From sequence record PZ324410.1: a DNA stretch of 47,561 nt, one strand, 5' to 3'. Positions within the stretch are counted from its first letter, which is position 1. Each line of letters starts with the position of its first letter. Below are positions 16,861-46,936 of the stretch, piece by piece. Made by a program: the position numbers and the translations under genes. This stretch comes from a phage. The notes beneath the pieces are model-generated. The model worked only from the letters and a program-made list of their open reading frames with translations. It ran no database searches and had not been told where the DNA came from.

Positions 16861-17222
16861 AGGACCAACCACTTAGCTGGAATGATGTATCGAACTTCCG
16901 ATTCTGTTAAACCTAAGTCCATGCATATACTATCCACACTTTTCTGTGCAGGGTAATTTCGAGAGAAGTAGTTCCCCATCCACTCTCTAAGGCCTGTAAA
17001 GCATGGTATGTCATCGAAATCTGAGATGTCAGATGCAGCATTGAATGCCTTACTACATATCAAGCATTGTTTATAGGAAAACGCATCTCTTTCCGATGAT
17101 ACTCCTGATGAATACTTATATTTATCTCCTTTGTGTATTTCTCTTCCACACTCGCAGCATTTATGGCTCTTGATAGCTTTTCTTTCTATTTGTCTGAAAG
17201 CAAGTGGCTGTTCACCCATCAC
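16857..17222 (-). CDS. zinc-ribbon protein
   Basis: CCECG and CLIC Cys pairs in 121-aa ORF. Confidence 0.5.
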   Translation of the reverse strand: MMGEQPLAFRQIERKAIKSHKCCECGREIHKGDKYKYSSGVSSERDAFSYKQCLICSKAFNAASDISDFDDIPCFTGLREWMGNYFSRNYPAQKSVDSICMDLGLTESEVRYIIPAKWLVL

Positions 17223-18028
17223 ATCTTCTCCAGAATTGCCATGACCTCGTGAATATCAGCAACAGGAATCTGGATAAATTCCTCATCCTCTGCCACCACA
17301 TGACCAGCAGGGAGAATCACATGGTCAGCTGGCTTCAATAACTCAATCAGGCGGTCTACTGGCTTAATCTTTTTCGACTTCAGCACCTTTGCTGTGACTT
17401 TGTCCTTGCCTTGCGCCCTCGCTTCTTCTACCGCCTCGTCGATAACTTTTACTGCATCATCTCCATGTTCGCGCGTTACCGCTACGGCATTTGCATAGCT
17501 GATTTGTCCTGCACTGATGCGCGCTTTTACTTCCGCTGGAACATCACCCAGCGACAGATGCATTTGCACGTCAGATACTGAGCGGCCTACCTTTTTGGCA
17601 ATTTCTTCATTCGTCCAGCCAAAACCCTTCAGTCGCGTGTAAGCCTTTGCGCGTTCAAACGGGTCGAGTTGCTTGCCCTGACTGGATGACACCATGAAGG
17701 CGATTTTGTCAGCCTCGTCGCCAGTGAAATCCTTGCACTCAATGCGAACGATTGGTGCTCCGCGCTCAATGGCACGCAATGCGCCGAGATAGCGGTGCTG
17801 ACCATCAAGAATGCGGATTCCCTTCTCATCTGGAATAACTGTTAATGCTGGCAGTGGCTGTCCTGATTCCCAGCACTGCGCGAAATATTCAACGTGTTGC
17901 TCATCTGCTTCACGGATGTTATATCCAGGCTCCAGATAGATTTGCTCCACTGGCACGAGATAGGTTTTGTTCACAGCGATTCCGTTGCGCGTTTCTTTGT
18001 CTGAATAGATTTTGCTTAGTGTTTTCAT
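17219..18028 (-). CDS. ParB-like nuclease domain protein
   Basis: LDGQHRY-type ParB N-terminal motif plus predicted HTH segment (EEIAKKVGRSVSDV). Confidence 0.6.
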   Translation of the reverse strand: MKTLSKIYSDKETRNGIAVNKTYLVPVEQIYLEPGYNIREADEQHVEYFAQCWESGQPLPALTVIPDEKGIRILDGQHRYLGALRAIERGAPIVRIECKDFTGDEADKIAFMVSSSQGKQLDPFERAKAYTRLKGFGWTNEEIAKKVGRSVSDVQMHLSLGDVPAEVKARISAGQISYANAVAVTREHGDDAVKVIDEAVEEARAQGKDKVTAKVLKSKKIKPVDRLIELLKPADHVILPAGHVVAEDEEFIQIPVADIHEVMAILEKM

Positions 18029-21537: not shown

Positions 21538-21614
21538 TGGTGGACACGGACGGATTTGAACCTTCAATCAGCCGATTATGAGTCGGTTGCTTTAACCAAT
21601 TAAGCTACGCGTCC
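21538..21614 (-). tRNA. tRNA with CAU anticodon (Met or Ile2), CCA encoded
   Basis: hand-folded on minus strand: 7-bp acceptor stem GGACGCG/CGTGTCC, D-arm GCTT-AATTGGTTA-AAGC, anticodon loop CUCAUAA, T-loop GGTTCAAATCC; one mismatch each in anticodon and T stems. Confidence 0.6.
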
Positions 21615-22021: not shown

Positions 22022-22687
22022 TTAAATCAAGCCTTCGTCAGTTAGCTTGCCGATAATCCACATCTCTCCTTCAGCATAAAACATAGCTTGTGAGTGCCCT
22101 GTTTCTGTCTCGCGCATAATGCCGTATCCTTTGTCGATGAACCATTGCTGGAAGACTCGTCCACGCTTAACAGAGCGATTGTACACATCGAATTGCTCAA
22201 GCTGTCTGTTTAGCCATACTGCTGACTGTCCAAACTTCTGTGCAACCTGTGTTGCATTGTAAAGATTGTTTCGCTCAACGATGCGATCATAGACATCTGC
22301 TTTTGGTGCCATCTCCTTGTTTTCAAGCGCAAGCTTCTCTTTCTCTTTCTCTGAGGCAAGTAATGCCTCCAGTGCTTCAATATAGTTTTGCGGAAGATTT
22401 GGCTTGCTAACCTGCGATTCCAGTTCTTGCCATCGTCTAATGATGGCAGCGCGCATTTTGATGCTATATCCTGACACCAGAATTAATGTTTCCTCCTTAT
22501 CCAAAAGAAGCATTTGATACGTGCGCCCTCTGCTGTCTTTGTAATCTCCTAACTTTTCAGGAGATTGAATTTCAGCTAACATTTTTCGTATGTCAGCCAA
22601 AACATTGTCATGCCGTTTCCCTGTCAACTCCGAAATCTCACGGCTTGACATGGTTTGCACTTTACCAACATTCATTAATGCGTTCAT
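22022..22687 (-). CDS. Rha/ORF6N-type phage regulatory protein with KilA-C-like C-terminal domain (antirepressor-like)
   Basis: N-terminal SSREISELTGKRHDNVLADIRKM motif; coiled-coil linker; C-terminal KilAC-like segment. Confidence 0.55.
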   Translation of the reverse strand: MNALMNVGKVQTMSSREISELTGKRHDNVLADIRKMLAEIQSPEKLGDYKDSRGRTYQMLLLDKEETLILVSGYSIKMRAAIIRRWQELESQVSKPNLPQNYIEALEALLASEKEKEKLALENKEMAPKADVYDRIVERNNLYNATQVAQKFGQSAVWLNRQLEQFDVYNRSVKRGRVFQQWFIDKGYGIMRETETGHSQAMFYAEGEMWIIGKLTDEGLI

Positions 22688-24274: not shown

Positions 24275-24757
24275 TTACTTTTTGCCGTGGTTTTCATGAA
24301 AGTTATAATAAATTTCTGCATTTTTTCTAGCTCTCCCTGCATCATTGATATCACTAAAAAAACCCAATGAAATCTCTTTCTTGTTAACTGATATTCTCGC
24401 CCTCCACTTCCCCATTCTTTTGGACCAGCTAACGCCAACAATACCACTTGTGTTATCTATCCTTTTTGAAAGATTTACACTGTTTTCTTGCCTGCTTACA
24501 ATCCTCAGGTTTTCAATTCTGTTATCCAGCCTGTCATGGTTAATGTGATCAATCTCCATACCGTCAGGTATTGGGCCGTTATGCATTTCCCATATAACTC
24601 TATGCACAAGCTGCGTTTTGCCAAACAAGCTAACCTGCAAATAACCATCTGGTCGAACAGTTCCTGCATTATGACCAGCCATGGCATTTGAAGACCTCCT
24701 TGCTTTCCATTTCAAGGCACCACAATCATATTCAAAAATATCATCCAAAATATTCAT
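24275..24757 (-). CDS. HNH homing endonuclease (HNH + AP2-like)
   Basis: LVHRVIWEMHNGPIPDGMEIDHINHDRLDNRIENLR and GIVGVSW motifs; paralog of 46263..46766. Confidence 0.7.
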   Translation of the reverse strand: MNILDDIFEYDCGALKWKARRSSNAMAGHNAGTVRPDGYLQVSLFGKTQLVHRVIWEMHNGPIPDGMEIDHINHDRLDNRIENLRIVSRQENSVNLSKRIDNTSGIVGVSWSKRMGKWRARISVNKKEISLGFFSDINDAGRARKNAEIYYNFHENHGKK

Positions 24758-24834
24758 CTTAAAACCACCAATCAAGACAATTAAGATACAAATCTACATC
24801 ATATCTACACCATCATCAATTGGTTTTCTCTCTA

Positions 24835-28422: not shown

Positions 28423-28426
<4 letters not shown>
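27950..28426 (+). CDS. minor tail protein (lambda M-like position)
   Basis: 158-aa ORF immediately after tape measure. Confidence 0.55.
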
Positions 28427-32548
<4,122 letters not shown>

Positions 32549-37261: not shown

Positions 37262-37783
37262 TTAAAACGGCACGTCAGAGTCAAAGTCCATCGGAGGCTC
37301 GTTAGATGGCGCTGATTGCTTAGGAGCAGGCGCTGATTTTGTTTGTTGACGACTGAAAACACCAGCCACATAGTTACCAGTTTTTTGCTTATCCTCAGAT
37401 TCCCAAACGCGCAGAAGAAGGATCATCGGGCGATTAGCAAGCGCACTAGCAATAGCAAAATCAGTCGGCTCTTTCCCTGACGCCATCAGCTTGCCACCAG
37501 CGTTTGCGTCAATTGCTGCAAGCATAGTGATAGCATTGTCGCGCTGCTTTTCTTTTGAGCTAAATACTTTCAGCTTCTGGAAGATGATGCGATTTTTATA
37601 CTCACCATCAAGGATTCTCCACTTAAGATTGAAGAATCGCTCACCTTCCCACTGATCGTCTTTACACTCTTCAACGGCAGCAAGAACACGGCTGCCATCA
37701 GGAATTACTTCGAAACCACCACCCAGCTCAAATTCAGATTTAGATTCAACAGCTTTACCGTCAGAAAGATTCCAGAAACCCAT
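37262..37783 (-). CDS. putative ssDNA-binding protein with SSB-like acidic C-terminal tip
   Basis: C-terminus MDFDSDVPF resembles bacterial SSB tip DFDDDIPF; sits beside Gp157 and AAA_24 genes. Confidence 0.5.
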   Translation of the reverse strand: MGFWNLSDGKAVESKSEFELGGGFEVIPDGSRVLAAVEECKDDQWEGERFFNLKWRILDGEYKNRIIFQKLKVFSSKEKQRDNAITMLAAIDANAGGKLMASGKEPTDFAIASALANRPMILLLRVWESEDKQKTGNYVAGVFSRQQTKSAPAPKQSAPSNEPPMDFDSDVPF

Positions 37784-37800
37784 TTTTGTGTCCTCTCGAT

Positions 37801-38280
37801 TTATTTGATGATCAGTTTTGGCTTGCCATCTGTAATGGCACAACCCTTAATCTCAATCCCGGCTTTTATCGCATTTTTAATTGCTGCGTTATCTGCCGAC
37901 ACTTTCACAACGCGGTACTGCTCAGGAAGCTGTTCAACAGGGACAAACACATCAAGAACTGGTGATGGTTTTCCAAGCGTGATACTGAACAACTTACCTT
38001 TGATGTTTGTCTTTCCTGACGCCATCATGTTTTGACGAAGATAATCTTTAAGGTTATCAATCTTCGCAACTAAAACACGCTTACGCTCAGAAAGACGGTC
38101 AATCTCTGATTTAAGTCCAGCTTCATCAGCTTCAAGCTCACGAATGTAAGCAGCAACCATTTCAGCCTTTCCTTCAAACTCCTCTTCAATAAGATTGATG
38201 GTATCTTCAATCTGCTCCCGTGGAATATCCTCCATCGCCAGTAGTTCATTAAGCTGTTTGGTTATCTCGTAGAGATGCAT
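37801..38280 (-). CDS. Sipho_Gp157 family protein
   Basis: N-terminal MHLYEITKQLNEL and coiled-coil typical of Gp157; start uncertain. Confidence 0.55.
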   Translation of the reverse strand: MHLYEITKQLNELLAMEDIPREQIEDTINLIEEEFEGKAEMVAAYIRELEADEAGLKSEIDRLSERKRVLVAKIDNLKDYLRQNMMASGKTNIKGKLFSITLGKPSPVLDVFVPVEQLPEQYRVVKVSADNAAIKNAIKAGIEIKGCAITDGKPKLIIK

Positions 38281-39091
38281 AATATTTAATCTCACTCAAA
38301 AGTGGGTTCTCACCTTTTTCAAAAGGAATTTCAGGTTCAAGGTTGTATCTGTTTTTAGCATTAACATACCCAATACGACCATCACCAGAGGTGATAAGAA
38401 CTCGCTGACCAGTCTGAACAACCTTTCCAAACTTGGTGACTTGCCCTTTCTTATCAGTCTCAGTTCCTTTCACAAACTCTTCATTTCTGATGTAAATAAC
38501 AGCATCACTAAGATTCACATAACCAGAAACTGAAGCATCATGCATGTCAAGTGTGTAAACGGTGTATTCATCAGCATCAGGTCGATTCTTCATCTTTTTA
38601 ACACCTGCGTGTGCAAGATAAATAATGCTCATCCCTTTTTCTTTGCGAAGATACTTGCATGCATTTATTATTTCAGCGTGCATTTCAGAAACAACAATAT
38701 ATCCTTTGTTGTAACCACCAGCCGCAGAACCTACGTTGTCAACACCGTAATTTTCACAAACCTCATGCTCAAACATTGAATGCAGGCTTGTGATTGAGTC
38801 AATTACAAGCGTTTTGTAATTATGTTCCTCAGTAATTAATGCGCGTAGCTGTGACAGCAAATCATCCTTTGTGCTTGTTTTGCGTTTAGCGTCAGCGCGA
38901 TTCAGAACAGGAAATGAATCAGGTTTCTTTTCATCATCCCAGTCATCAAAAACACCAGTGATCTCTTCAGCCTGAATAAACACTGGGTTTGGGAATAGCG
39001 CCGCAAGAGTTGTCTTGCCTACACCTGGAGTACCAACCAATGTTATGATTGGTGCTGCTGGTTTTGGTTTTTGAATCATTGATAAGCTCAT
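38249..39091 (-). CDS. AAA_24 family ATPase (Sak4-like)
   Basis: Walker A GTPGVGKTT and Walker B-like VIDSITSL; GAGAGGACA RBS. Confidence 0.7.
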   Translation of the reverse strand: MSLSMIQKPKPAAPIITLVGTPGVGKTTLAALFPNPVFIQAEEITGVFDDWDDEKKPDSFPVLNRADAKRKTSTKDDLLSQLRALITEEHNYKTLVIDSITSLHSMFEHEVCENYGVDNVGSAAGGYNKGYIVVSEMHAEIINACKYLRKEKGMSIIYLAHAGVKKMKNRPDADEYTVYTLDMHDASVSGYVNLSDAVIYIRNEEFVKGTETDKKGQVTKFGKVVQTGQRVLITSGDGRIGYVNAKNRYNLEPEIPFEKGENPLLSEIKYYASLRDNQTA

Positions 39092-43546: not shown

Positions 43547-43693
43547 ATGAAAATCAAAGACCGTGAAGAATTTGAAGATGCGCAGGCTATGGCACGCATT
43601 GCAGTTGAGCGCACAAACAACAGCATTCCTGCCGAAGTATTCTGGAACGCTGAAATGCAGGCCTTAATCTCTGCGTATGGGTTAAGCAAATGA
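43547..43693 (+). CDS. hypothetical small protein
   Basis: 48-aa hand-called ORF; GAGGGTGAAGAG RBS. Confidence 0.4.
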   Translation: MKIKDREEFEDAQAMARIAVERTNNSIPAEVFWNAEMQALISAYGLSK

Positions 43694-43785
43694 CAGGCGC
43701 AACACTCGAACTTATCGCCAGCCTGGTTATCGTGGCGTTCATCATCATCGCAGTGGCAGTTTCTAAATCAGGGTATAGGGAGTAA
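43690..43785 (+). CDS. small membrane peptide
   Basis: 31-aa hydrophobic ORF; ATGA overlap. Confidence 0.25.
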   Translation: MTGATLELIASLVIVAFIIIAVAVSKSGYRE

Positions 43786-43873
43786 CAAAATGAGCAACTG
43801 GCATAACGAACACATCATGCAGTGGTATCGCCGTCGCATTAAGGCAATCATTAACTCTTATGAGGTTTAACAA

Positions 43874-44074
43874 ATGGCAAAGACTATCTATCTTCGCGAA
43901 AAACTGGAACAGGAGCTTGGACACGTTGGCGCGCAGAACTTTATGAGCAGGCAGGTGGAGCGAGCAGTGAAGTCTGCACGATGCTCGAAGGTGTGCCGTG
44001 TATGGCACAAAGATGGTGATAAACGCGTGCTGGACGAGGTAATTATATCTGGACAGGCAAACCATCAGCTTTGA
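43874..44074 (+). CDS. hypothetical protein
   Basis: 66-aa ORF from ORF track. Confidence 0.45.
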   Translation: MAKTIYLREKLEQELGHVGAQNFMSRQVERAVKSARCSKVCRVWHKDGDKRVLDEVIISGQANHQL

Positions 44075-44122
44075 TGTGTTTTATTGAACTGCAAACGATT
44101 CAGCTATGTACATGGTGATGAT

Positions 44123-44326
44123 ATGAGTGAGTTGGTTATCAAGAGTTGCCCGTTTTGTGGTGGCGAGCCAAAGGTTAAACCATGGCGTTCATATGACCAT
44201 GAGAAACCATACTTCCTGATTCGATGCTCATGCGGGGCTAGAATGACAAACTTCAGGGAGTCTGCAGAGCAGGCAATTGCCGACTGGAATCGCAGGGTTA
44301 ATGTTGATTTATATGGCAAAAGTTAA
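44123..44326 (+). CDS. Lar-family restriction alleviation protein
   Basis: KSCPFCGG...CSCGAR...AEQAIADWNRR, the canonical Lar family pattern; ORF trimmed to ATG 44123. Confidence 0.7.
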   Translation: MSELVIKSCPFCGGEPKVKPWRSYDHEKPYFLIRCSCGARMTNFRESAEQAIADWNRRVNVDLYGKS

Positions 44327-44546
44327 AACATACGAGTTCTGGTTTGTGCGGAACGCAATGTATGCGTGCAAGACAATCAAGCGAGCGCGCTGGTGGAATA
44401 AGTGGTTAATCCTGTCTGGCTGCATTGTGCTGGCAAAGTGCAAATTCAAAGCGATTGACATCACAGATGAGGATGCGCTCAAAATCGCAAAGATTGAGTT
44501 TGAAGAAGATGGTTATTACGAAGAAATTATGGGGGTTAGGGTATGA
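44301..44546 (+). CDS. hypothetical protein
   Basis: ORF 44277..44546 trimmed to first ATG; start uncertain. Confidence 0.4.
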   Translation: MLIYMAKVKTYEFWFVRNAMYACKTIKRARWWNKWLILSGCIVLAKCKFKAIDITDEDALKIAKIEFEEDGYYEEIMGVRV

Positions 44547-45025
44547 GTGAAGTTAAGCGTTATGACCTTGTTGGCGATATGGATGGAAATTGCAACCTTA
44601 ACGAAGCCAGAATGGAACTGTCGGATGATGGTGTTTACGTAAAGCACAATGACTACGCGGCACTCGAAGCCAAATGCACGGCGCTGGCGGCGGAGAATTC
44701 TGGGCTGAAGTCTGGTGCAATCAAGGCCATAGAGGATATTCAATGCTTCTACGATTCGGAAGCCTGGCACGTATCCGAAGATGGGGAAAGCGAGACGGCC
44801 GTTGTTGCACTGGATGATGCAAAAGGTAGTGTTGAGCACTTCGTGCTGAATGTCAAAACCCCGGCTACCTACGCTTCCCTGGCTGAAATTGAACGCAAGG
44901 CAATCCGCAAGTTCATTAACAGCATTGAGCACATCCTGCGTGACAAGTTGTCACCGTATGACACCGAAGAGGTGCTTGAGGCCATGCGTATTTTTCTGGA
45001 AGAACAGGGAGGTGAGCAAAAATGA
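44543..45025 (+). CDS. hypothetical acidic protein
   Basis: 160 aa, about 20 percent Asp/Glu; GGGGGTTAGGG RBS. Confidence 0.5.
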   Translation: MSEVKRYDLVGDMDGNCNLNEARMELSDDGVYVKHNDYAALEAKCTALAAENSGLKSGAIKAIEDIQCFYDSEAWHVSEDGESETAVVALDDAKGSVEHFVLNVKTPATYASLAEIERKAIRKFINSIEHILRDKLSPYDTEEVLEAMRIFLEEQGGEQK

Positions 45026-45318
45026 CAATCACAAAACAACAGGTAGAAGAACAACGCGGAACAGTAAAGGCAAAAACATATTCAGTTCCAAGAATTGCAA
45101 TTCCTCATCCTCCTGATGGTGATGGATATTATGTCAATGTTGTTGAGCTTACTGACTACATGGCATGCCTCAACAGAATTACAGAAATGAGCATTGAGAA
45201 TTATCATATGAAAAATCGAATTGCAGAACTGGAGTCCGCATTGAATCGCCATTATGAGCTCCCTGACGTTTATGATATGGCGATAAAGCAATTCGAAAGC
45301 CTGGCTAAAAGTGAATAG
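45022..45318 (+). CDS. hypothetical protein
   Basis: 98-aa ORF; GGGAGGTGAGC RBS. Confidence 0.5.
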   Translation: MTITKQQVEEQRGTVKAKTYSVPRIAIPHPPDGDGYYVNVVELTDYMACLNRITEMSIENYHMKNRIAELESALNRHYELPDVYDMAIKQFESLAKSE

Positions 45319-45381
45319 CTACCAGTTCATGTTAATTATCAGTGCGCTCTGTGTGGCGCACGCTTTGTGGGAGGAATACAT

Positions 45382-45489
45382 ATGACCAGACACCAACGAC
45401 GCCGCTACACCACTGGCGCTAAAATCTTTCTTGCCGTGTATGTGCTGGCACTGGTGGCAGCTATTGCTGGAGTGGTGCATTATGTTTAA
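45382..45489 (+). CDS. small membrane peptide
   Basis: 35-aa hand-called ORF; GGGAGGAATACAT RBS. Confidence 0.3.
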   Translation: MTRHQRRRYTTGAKIFLAVYVLALVAAIAGVVHYV

Positions 45490-45802
45490 TCAATTATCTG
45501 AGTTTTATAAGGCATATTCCGACTGGATTGATGCTGGAGCACCAGAAAGTGAACCATTCAGTAGAATGGTTGGTCTTTGTGGGTGTGTGTGTTTATATCT
45601 CAGGAGCAAAGACTGCAACTCCCATGTAAGGGAATCGGTGCTCTTGTTAATGCGAAAACAATTCATTAAGGCCGGTCTTGATCTCGATTACCCATTTAAC
45701 AACCAAGATAACTCATACTATGTGGAATCCATCGATGGATTGATTCACACCAACAAGTCTCGCATAGCATGGGTTAAAAAGGAGTGGCAACATTATGTTT
45801 AA
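45482..45802 (+). CDS. hypothetical protein
   Basis: ORF 45431..45802 trimmed to ATG 45482. Confidence 0.45.
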   Translation: MFNQLSEFYKAYSDWIDAGAPESEPFSRMVGLCGCVCLYLRSKDCNSHVRESVLLLMRKQFIKAGLDLDYPFNNQDNSYYVESIDGLIHTNKSRIAWVKKEWQHYV

Positions 45803-45974
45803 CGACATTAGCGACGCAATGCAAAACATGTGGGAACGCTACTGGGACAGCATGAAGACATGCCACTACATGATGGTGCAGATAGGTAATTACATTGAGG
45901 TTGTTCCTGACAATGGTGTTCACGATATTAAGTGCATGTGCTCTACGAGGGCTTTTGCAAATGCAAACAACTAA
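45795..45974 (+). CDS. hypothetical small Cys-containing protein
   Basis: 59-aa hand-called ORF overlapping neighbours. Confidence 0.3.
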   Translation: MFNDISDAMQNMWERYWDSMKTCHYMMVQIGNYIEVVPDNGVHDIKCMCSTRAFANANN

Positions 45975-46162
45975 ACAGAAAGTTTGGGAGGCAGCAAAAA
46001 ACGAGGGGGTGGATAGGTTTATATCAATGATTGCGAAGCACTTCCCCGGCGCAATAGATGTTGTCCATATTAAATCACCACACCGCGACGTATGGTGCAA
46101 AGCAAAATAAACTATTTACATGATACCGTATAAAGGGTATCATAATTCAACGAGGTGCAAAA

Positions 46163-46297
46163 ATGATTTGTCAAACATGTGGTAAGGAACTTCTTCCTGG
46201 ATGCCGTAAGGATAAGAAGTATTGCTCTCCTTATTGCAAGTTAAAAGCCACGAGGAGGAGAAATGCTGACAGAAAACAGAGAGTTCAAGTGGGATGA
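46163..46297 (+). CDS. small zinc-ribbon-like protein
   Basis: 44-aa hand-called ORF with CQTCG and CSPYC; overlaps HNH start by 35 nt. Confidence 0.25.
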   Translation: MICQTCGKELLPGCRKDKKYCSPYCKLKATRRRNADRKQRVQVG

Positions 46298-46766
46298 TGT
46301 ATTTGATTATAGCGATGGGGTGCTGTCGTGGAAAATTAAGCCTTGCAAGAACATGAAAAAATCATCTCCAGCTGGAACAATGAGAAACGATGGTTACTTG
46401 CAAGTAAGATTCATGAACAAGATACATTTGATTCATAGGATTGTATGGGAAATGTTTAACGGCGAGATACCTGATGGTATGCAGATAGACCACATCAACC
46501 ACGACAGGAGTGACAACAGAATTCAAAACTTAAGGATGGTTACTAAAATATCAAACGGTAGAAATTTGACCAAGAAAACAAATAACACTAGTGGTGTTAC
46601 TGGCGTCTCATGGTACAAAAGCCGGGGGAAGTGGAGGGTGCAAATAATGGTTGACAGAAAAAGTATACACATTGGGTATTTTAGTGATTTTGAATCAGCT
46701 GTTGCCGCAAGGATTTCTGCTAATGAAAGGTATGGGTTCCACAAAAATCACGGAGTGAATTGTTGA
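46263..46766 (+). CDS. HNH homing endonuclease (HNH + AP2-like)
   Basis: LIHRIVWEMFNGEIPDGMQIDHINHDRSDNRIQNLR and GVTGVSWYK motifs; AGGAGGAG RBS. Confidence 0.7.
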   Translation: MLTENREFKWDDVFDYSDGVLSWKIKPCKNMKKSSPAGTMRNDGYLQVRFMNKIHLIHRIVWEMFNGEIPDGMQIDHINHDRSDNRIQNLRMVTKISNGRNLTKKTNNTSGVTGVSWYKSRGKWRVQIMVDRKSIHIGYFSDFESAVAARISANERYGFHKNHGVNC

Positions 46767-46908: not shown

Positions 46909-46936
46909 AACCCGCCTTGTGCGGGTTCTTTTTTTG
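46909..46936 (+). terminator. rho-independent terminator
   Basis: aacccgc cttgt gcgggtt hairpin then TTTTTTT. Confidence 0.65.

Follow-up and report, generated by a model that had tools for sequence, protein, structure and literature searches.

A strongly acidic siphophage protein with homology to Oad2: a probable member of the mosaic EaE/Oad2 family and candidate protein-binding anti-defence factor

Is the most acidic protein of a phage a mimic of DNA, or does its function lie elsewhere? The question is raised by an open reading frame (ORF) of 160 amino acids (aa) plus stop at 44543..45025 on the plus strand of the phage sequence PZ324410.1, whose whole length of 47,561 nucleotides (nt) is called the window below. 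From composition and context, the original prediction had proposed that this ORF encodes a DNA mimic or another anti-defence protein. Its account of the composition, about one fifth Asp or Glu and a net charge near -16, was borne out: 20 Glu and 13 Asp residues make 33 acidic positions (20.6%), Lys and Arg together number 17, and the net charge is -16, with an isoelectric point of 4.55 and a mass of 17.8 kDa. Among 47 greedily selected, non-overlapping window ORFs of at least 100 aa, whose median acidic fraction is 0.117, this protein ranks first in both acidic fraction and negative charge density. A large protein collection holds 1,579 homologues at E<=1e-3, and the ORF is therefore taken to be a real gene; in view of the more than 1,500 homologues of the plus frame, an antisense ORF of 138 aa (44516..44932) was regarded as spurious. 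As set out below, the analysis makes a protein-binding anti-defence factor more likely than a DNA mimic.

No match to the protein was found in Pfam, NCBIfam or PADLOC, and its PHROG matches are nearly all to families of unknown function. One weak PHROG match, to a 'Lar-like' family (E 1.9e-5), is attributed to a common N-terminal module and not to homology with Lar. A sequence search of PDB chains returned chance matches to palladin alone (E ~1), and fold searches matched no known protein family, DNA mimics included. Direct comparison by blastp, in turn, aligned the protein with gp27 of phage HK446, named Oad2 (YP_007111980), at 39% identity over 124 aa (E 3e-20; residues 41-159 with residues 60-175 of Oad2), and with P22 EaE (NP_059592; E 6e-6) through the zipper and TPAT motif described below. 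By these alignments Oad2 is a much better match than EaE. At the corresponding position, Macdonaldcampvirus and related siphophages encode homologues that carry the annotation 'Eae protein'. Taken together, the sequence comparisons make it very probable that the protein belongs to a mosaic family, EaE/Oad2, of early phage proteins that are not essential. The family is an old one, to which P22 EaE belongs; we know of no published function for EaE itself, and the first functional assignment has just appeared, with Oad2.

Oad2 (OLD anti-defence 2) is described in a preprint of July 2026 as a protein that binds and inhibits the P2 OLD abortive-infection tRNase (bioRxiv 10.64898/2026.07.10.737580). 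According to the same preprint, recB-deficient cells are rescued from OLD toxicity by Oad2, and OLD defence is lost in its presence. Oad2 pulls OLD down and elutes together with it as a stable complex; it prevents activation of the OLD tetramer, whose cleavage of tRNA it inhibits, but leaves dimeric mutants that are constitutively active uninhibited. OLD reportedly fires when RecBCD is antagonised. A homologue from phage HK75 that is 54% identical to Oad2 was inactive against OLD, and the specificity of Oad2 is accordingly reported as narrow (bioRxiv 10.64898/2026.07.10.737580).

An alignment of homologues (A1) resolves the family into a five-part mosaic, comprising a variable N-terminal module, a conserved zipper, a hypervariable middle module, the motif TPATDAFLAE and alternative C-terminal modules. 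The N-terminal module of the acidic protein (aa 1-37, beginning MSEVKRYDLVGDMDGNC; 44543..44653, plus strand) has a net charge of -5 and is predicted, at low confidence, to form a small beta hairpin (predicted local distance difference test, pLDDT, 57-68 in an AlphaFold2, AF2, model). Apart from this hairpin the protein is predicted to be almost wholly helical; the monomer model has a mean pLDDT of 75.5 and is weak in the N-terminal and middle modules (57-78). The leucine-zipper core (aa 38-56, YAALEAKCTALAAENSGLK; 44654..44710, plus strand) is modelled with a pLDDT of ~90 and is 81% identical to the zipper of Oad2. Its heptads place L41, L48 and L55 at position d and Y38, C45 and N52 at position a. 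The zipper motif of the family, LEAKCxALAAEN (in relaxed form LEAKCxxLxxEN), is present as ALEAKCTALAAENSGLK, and within the conserved segment ALEAKCAALAAENAGLK residue E51 is invariant in the alignment and K44, L48, A49 and N52 are nearly so. In zippers of the GCN4 type, a buried Asn at an a position favours parallel, in-register pairing.

The middle module (aa 57-104; 44711..44854, plus strand; pLDDT 61-78) has a net charge of -9 and accounts for most of the protein's excess negative charge. Judged by their first ten residues, the middle modules of 102 parsed homologues fall into at least 50 distinct types; their mean charge is -5, and 23% of them, including the commonest type, are neutral or positive. 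The particular middle module found here is joined to an Oad2-type N-terminus in the prophage proteins P0005, P0007, P0065 and P0082 of the alignment. The remainder of the protein consists of the TPAT motif and a C-terminal helical hairpin (aa 105-160; 44855..45022, plus strand), with helices predicted at 107-135 and 138-157 (pLDDT 86-88) and a net charge of -2. The motif reads TPATYASLAE, with two substitutions relative to the consensus, and T106, T109 and E115 occupy conserved columns.

The published contrast between Oad2 and its inactive HK75 homologue, gp28, was examined module by module. Recomputed over the whole proteins, their identity is 53.9%, which reproduces the published 54%. The N-terminal modules are 96% identical and the zippers are similar, while the middle modules are unrelated and the C-terminal regions agree in nothing but the TPAT motif and their final 11 residues. 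Because the N-terminal modules are so nearly identical and the middle and C-terminal parts differ, the determinant that separates the active from the inactive protein must lie after the zipper. HK75 gp28 has no counterpart of the Oad2-type hairpin apart from the last 11 aa of Oad2. The acidic protein does have one: the C-terminal module beyond TPAT alone aligns with that of Oad2 at 37% identity (E 8e-8), and the AF2 models of the two proteins agree in this region, each showing a 29-residue helix directly after TPAT, a 2-residue break and a second helix of ~20-21 residues (in Oad2, 121-149 and 152-172, in a model of low overall confidence, 65.5). This comparison nominates the C-terminal hairpin as a candidate determinant of OLD specificity.

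Nucleotide comparisons indicate that the modules have been exchanged as units. The annotated relatives of the window phage are the siphophages Sa179lw (Buchananvirus), ST65 (Macdonaldcampvirus), KFS-SE2 (Skatevirus) and Bas80 of the BASEL collection, among all of which the slot occupied by the gene is conserved. The N-terminal module has ~90% nucleotide identity in Sa179lw and ST65 and is absent from Bas80, KFS-SE2 and an Stx2c phage. ST65 matches the gene over the N-terminal module and zipper, after which similarity is lost; in Bas80 and KFS-SE2 only the flanks and the C-terminal module are in common with the window gene; and the Stx2c prophage matches a short stretch in the zipper region (44666-44721; 87.5%) and the C-terminal module (~94%). 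Of 5,426 complete E. coli genomes, 90 carry prophages with the C-terminal module (nt 314-483 of the gene) at 90-95% nucleotide identity, and in none of those 90 was the whole gene present. The internal breakpoints, together with the C-terminal module in prophages, thus indicate that the gene is a recent chimera assembled from a cassette pool held in common with temperate phages. The N-terminal module alone (aa 1-38, 74% identity) also occurs in 'Eae protein' genes of Escherichia myophages of ~140 kb (W70, A73, LTH01 and others); on this sequence match the cassette pool extends far outside the siphophages and lambdoid prophages.

The homologues P0110 and P0065, which are encoded in lambdoid prophages, lie in one fixed slot of the order CIII-Kil-Erf or Rad52-(SSB)-Abc2-DUF2737-family member-x-Ead_Ea22/DUF551-(Lar)-int. 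The same slot holds oad2 in HK446, and the genes for P0110 and P0065 also overlap an upstream small gene by 4 nt.

From this anatomy we propose the following reading. A short parallel leucine zipper (aa 38-56), with Asn52 buried, would oligomerise the protein and display exchangeable flanking modules, namely the N-terminal module, the acidic middle and the C-terminal helical hairpin. The hairpin, and perhaps also the acidic middle cassette, would bind and neutralise an immune effector of the host or of a prophage, acting as a stoichiometric inhibitor by analogy with Oad2, the only relative characterised biochemically. The best candidate for such an effector would be an abortive-infection nuclease of the OLD class, with its ABC-ATPase and TOPRIM domains, kept by the inhibitor in an inactive oligomeric state; the shuffling of modules would then reflect an arms race over target specificity. 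We judge the chances of this reading, taken whole, to be about even. That the protein has an anti-defence role of some kind seems to us slightly better than an even chance, and OLD specifically can be put forward as its target only tentatively.

A weak rationale for an OLD-type target comes from the rest of the window. A Mu Gam-like gene for DNA-end protection (37801..38295, minus strand; phrog_253, E 3.5e-43) is flanked by genes for SSB (37265-37843, minus strand) and a Sak4-like annealase (38252-39091, minus strand), and the resulting recombination module (37265-39091, minus strand) sits between helicase and primase genes, beside the small-gene cluster that holds the gene studied here. The Mu Gam-like protein may antagonise RecBCD. 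Because the phage carries this gene and module and OLD reportedly fires on RecBCD antagonism, the phage could possibly have a need for an inhibitor of an OLD-type sensor.

Several observations weigh against the proposal. The protein is 37-39% identical to Oad2 in the parts that the two have in common, whereas the HK75 homologue is inactive at 54%, and its middle module is unrelated to that of Oad2. Because the reported specificity of Oad2 is narrow, we are reluctant to assume that OLD is the target. The function of Oad2 itself rests on one preprint (bioRxiv 10.64898/2026.07.10.737580). Homologues of HK446 gp33 and Abc2, the reported triggers of OLD, were looked for in the window and not found, nor were any of gp31 or Erf, and the main text of the preprint makes no mention of Mu Gam-like proteins (bioRxiv 10.64898/2026.07.10.737580). 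The gene is not in the abc2/DUF2737 slot of oad2: the phage is a non-lambdoid siphophage, in which a divergent control region lies on one side of the small-gene cluster and the terminase genes on the other. The window showed no integrase or repressor among the ORFs scanned, in a scan that was not exhaustive. The AF2 monomer models are of moderate (75.5, for this protein) and low (65.5, for Oad2) confidence, and oligomerisation through the zipper is read from the sequence.

How does this proposal compare with mimicry of DNA, in which the acidic surface would titrate defence proteins that bind DNA, type I restriction enzymes among them, and so complement Lar? The protein is the most acidic of the phage's proteins of at least 100 aa (net -16), the family is acidic on average (mean net charge -12), and the accessory cluster also contains Lar. 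In addition, OLD is reported to bind aberrant DNA and single-stranded DNA hairpins (bioRxiv 10.64898/2026.07.10.737580), so that an acidic inhibitor could in principle fill its nucleic-acid site. Set against this, the charge density is below that of two known mimics: -0.10 per residue, as compared with -0.24 for T7 Ocr and -0.15 for T7 gp5.9 when computed from their sequence records; Oad2 itself has -0.05. Most of the charge resides in the variable, low-pLDDT N-terminal (-5) and middle (-9) modules, with just -2 in the conserved hairpin, and strong acidity is not a constant property of the family, since nearly a quarter of the parsed middle modules, the commonest type among them, are not acidic. 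Nor is there any match to Pfam, NCBIfam or PDB sequences, and hence none to Ocr or ArdA insofar as those libraries hold them. Lar, for its part, is missing from three of the four relatives that keep the gene, which gives the adjacency little weight and weakens any argument from association with it, and the characterised relative Oad2 acts on an abortive-infection tRNase, not on a restriction enzyme. We therefore regard a DNA mimic of this kind as distinctly unlikely, and mimicry of restriction-enzyme substrates as unsupported; mimicry of DNA or RNA at the nucleic-acid site of OLD is conceivable. Of the two functions originally suggested, an anti-defence role gains support from homology with Oad2 and none from charge or from the Lar neighbour, and mimicry of DNA found no support. 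Midway between the two stands a broader model, in which EaE/Oad2 proteins would form a plug-and-play anti-immunity platform: the zipper would be constant, the cassettes, drawn by virulent siphophages and lambdoid prophages from a common pool, would each recognise a different effector, and here the acidic middle would act as a nucleic-acid decoy at the DNA or tRNA site of an OLD-class enzyme while the hairpin docks. In this full form we hold the model to be improbable.

The same scaffold could also be directed at an effector different from OLD, for instance a further abortive-infection or nuclease system, with the swapped middle and C-terminal modules setting the specificity. The extreme diversity of modules (at least 50 middle types in 102 homologues), a middle module unrelated to that of Oad2, and the inactivity of the 54%-identical HK75 protein in a system of narrow specificity (bioRxiv 10.64898/2026.07.10.737580) all fit this idea, but the hairpin is common to our protein and Oad2 and no family member has been shown to inhibit anything besides OLD; we see it as a minor, though real, possibility. 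Alternatively, the protein might resemble Ea22 in function and, as a coiled-coil oligomer bound to a host protein, tune replication, the cell cycle or survival, as proposed for lambda Ea22, with no anti-defence role. The phenotype of lambda Ea22 is pro-lysogenic; the protein forms a coiled-coil tetramer, and its host partner is unknown (PMC10834534). Three close homologues with other middle modules exceed the 27-bit cut-off of PF13935 (Ead_Ea22) through the zipper-TPAT segment (P0017, 28.1 bits; P0030, 27.1; P0108, 48.6; lambda Ea22 and P22 EaD themselves score 100.9 and 73.1), and in P0108 an EaD/Ea22 N-terminus is naturally fused to the zipper, middle and C-terminal modules of the acidic protein; together these indicate that the EaE/Oad2 and Ead_Ea22 families are linked by recombination. 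The acidic protein itself, on the other hand, has no PF13935 match at E<=0.1 and no significant similarity to lambda Ea22 (blastp E 0.93), which was rejected as its closest relative, or to P22 EaD (E 0.011 over 30 aa); its closest characterised relative is Oad2. A pro-lysogenic role would moreover have no obvious use where the ORFs scanned, though not exhaustively, include no integrase or repressor. An Ea22-like role is accordingly one that we consider unlikely. An identity as an HNH endonuclease or homing-associated protein is suggested by database names, by reported fusions of Oad2-like proteins to HNH homing nucleases (bioRxiv 10.64898/2026.07.10.737580) and by a true HNH gene 1.2 kb downstream (46263-46766, plus strand). 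In the search that detects this true HNH gene at E 7e-22, no HNH domain was found in the acidic protein or in P0110 and P0005, the two 'HNH'-named homologues that were checked, and the model is nearly all helical with no zinc or HNH motif. At the domain level the identity is refuted, and the notion as a whole is very hard to credit. The NCBI name 'HNH endonuclease' is carried by P0005, P0104, P0106, P0110, P0111, P0117 and P0119 and by the RefSeq E. coli genes H76, H84, H92, H95 and H96, which underlie the C-terminal module; it probably spread from the rare HNH fusion proteins, and systematic misannotation is likely.

The gene lies in a cluster of small genes (43547-46766), which is preceded by a divergent intergenic region and closed by a terminator-like hairpin (46909-46927). 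Within it, the original prediction had placed the gene directly after Lar, which is not the case. The Lar-family restriction-alleviation gene (44123..44326, plus strand; PF14354, E 4.4e-11; TIGR03655, E 2e-11) is separated from it by a 69-aa gene of unknown function (44337..44546, plus strand; phrog_10786, E 3.7e-41), the stop of which overlaps the start of the acidic protein's gene in an ATGA at 44543-44546. A second ATGA, at 45022-45025, joins the gene to an ORF of 98 aa (45022..45318, plus strand) that has no PHROG or NCBIfam match, only a sub-threshold Pfam match to the coiled-coil family Cnn_1N (E 0.028), and no similarity in the compared relatives and prophage loci (tblastn, E<=1e-3). 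From their two ATGA overlaps, the 69-aa gene, the gene studied here and the 98-aa ORF are a translationally coupled trio. In the sequence this coupling is a clearer signal than the ribosome-binding site, which was originally called strong: a GGGGG run 8 nt upstream is a usable Shine-Dalgarno-like element, an AGGG run lies too near the ATG, and the site is best described as reasonable, though not canonical. Early expression fared similarly. The gene layout agrees with an early plus-strand cluster, and from this layout alone we infer that the gene is expressed early; a promoter scan gave 11 candidates, as compared with 10.9 expected in shuffled sequence, which is not above chance.

Over the gene, the window is identical to Escherichia phage ECO95 1-6-1 (47,511 bp), an unannotated record of a phage of E. 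coli O157:H7. The gene is also 100% identical in OR850880.1, a 13.5 kb fragment of Salmonella phage S.Kent 1-2-1 from Salmonella Kentucky, and the two records point to the same or a nearly identical phage recovered on two host genera. Among the annotated relatives, Sa179lw, ST65 and Bas80 keep the 69-aa gene at the same place, with 81-91% identity; KFS-SE2 appears to have lost most of it, with ~33 of its 69 residues still matching. Lar is present in the window phage and in KFS-SE2 and absent from Sa179lw, ST65 and Bas80, where a neighbouring DUF7540 gene is shorter and diverged. For relatives of the window phage, Bas80 for instance, the BASEL and OLD papers contain no data.

The remaining scanned ORFs of the window yielded a ParB-like protein (phrog_1033; 17222-18028, minus strand) and an Ant-like anti-repressor (phrog_63; 22025-22687, minus strand), both inside a mostly structural-gene region, and three scattered, paralogous homing-type HNH endonuclease genes (phrog_99; 24278-24775 and 28426-29037, minus strand, and 46263-46766, plus strand). 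The last of these, which lies in the small-gene cluster, also has a weak, sub-threshold AP2 match. The sole tRNA of the phage is a tRNA-Met(CAT) (21538-21614, minus strand). Because it has a G1:C72 pair and lacks the GGG/CCC anticodon stem, it is by sequence of the elongator-Met or Ile2 type and not an initiator. Phage tRNAs are reported to be able to rescue phages from OLD (bioRxiv 10.64898/2026.07.10.737580); for this tRNA, which is not of the initiator type, we claim no link to OLD.

Whatever its target, the gene extends the range of Oad2-like genes to non-lambdoid siphophages. If its product does inhibit OLD or a related nuclease, counter-defence of the Oad2 type would extend beyond temperate lambdoid phages and would reach widespread siphophages of Escherichia and Salmonella (Buchananvirus, Skatevirus and Macdonaldcampvirus) that are considered for biocontrol. 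If it has no anti-defence activity, it would simply add to a large accessory family whose function is unknown. In either case, Oad2, HK75 gp28 and the acidic protein differ by whole cassettes, so that the OLD-binding determinant should be mappable, with the C-terminal hairpin as the first candidate, and the 'HNH endonuclease' names on EaE/Oad2-like proteins look like misannotation.

Among known systems, the protein is closest to Oad2. Homology between the two runs through the zipper, the FVL-V-TPAT junction and the helical hairpin at the C-terminus. Each is an acidic accessory protein of the early set, and each gene overlaps a small gene upstream by ATGA. They differ in the N-terminal module, which is unrelated and is 56 aa long in Oad2 but 37 aa here, in the middle module, likewise unrelated, and in location, with oad2 downstream of abc2/DUF2737 in a lambdoid recombination locus and the present gene in the pre-terminase accessory cluster of a Buchananvirus-like siphophage. 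P22 EaE has a zipper 63% identical over 19 aa and the TPATDAFLAE motif, but its N-terminal, middle and C-terminal modules all differ, and its C-terminal region is longer (88 aa, ending AAQLRKG). Ea22 and EaD are, like our protein, acidic, coiled-coil, mosaic early proteins of the ea or exo-xis accessory region; the C-terminal domain of Ea22, however, was solved as a mixed alpha-beta fold (PMC10834534), and the PDB-chain search with our protein found no related entry. T7 Ocr and gp5.9 share with our protein small size, acidity and early expression (presumed here), but Ocr is 29% acidic with -0.24 charges per residue (20.6% and -0.10 here), and neither T7 protein showed a relationship to ours in sequence or fold. 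The nearest functional analogue of what we propose is Oad1 of vibriophage ICP1, which the title of its report presents as an inhibitor that is encoded by the phage and acts directly on a class 1 OLD-family nuclease (bioRxiv 10.1101/2025.01.06.631583); phage and host are different, and we liken the two by function, with no claim of a relationship in sequence.

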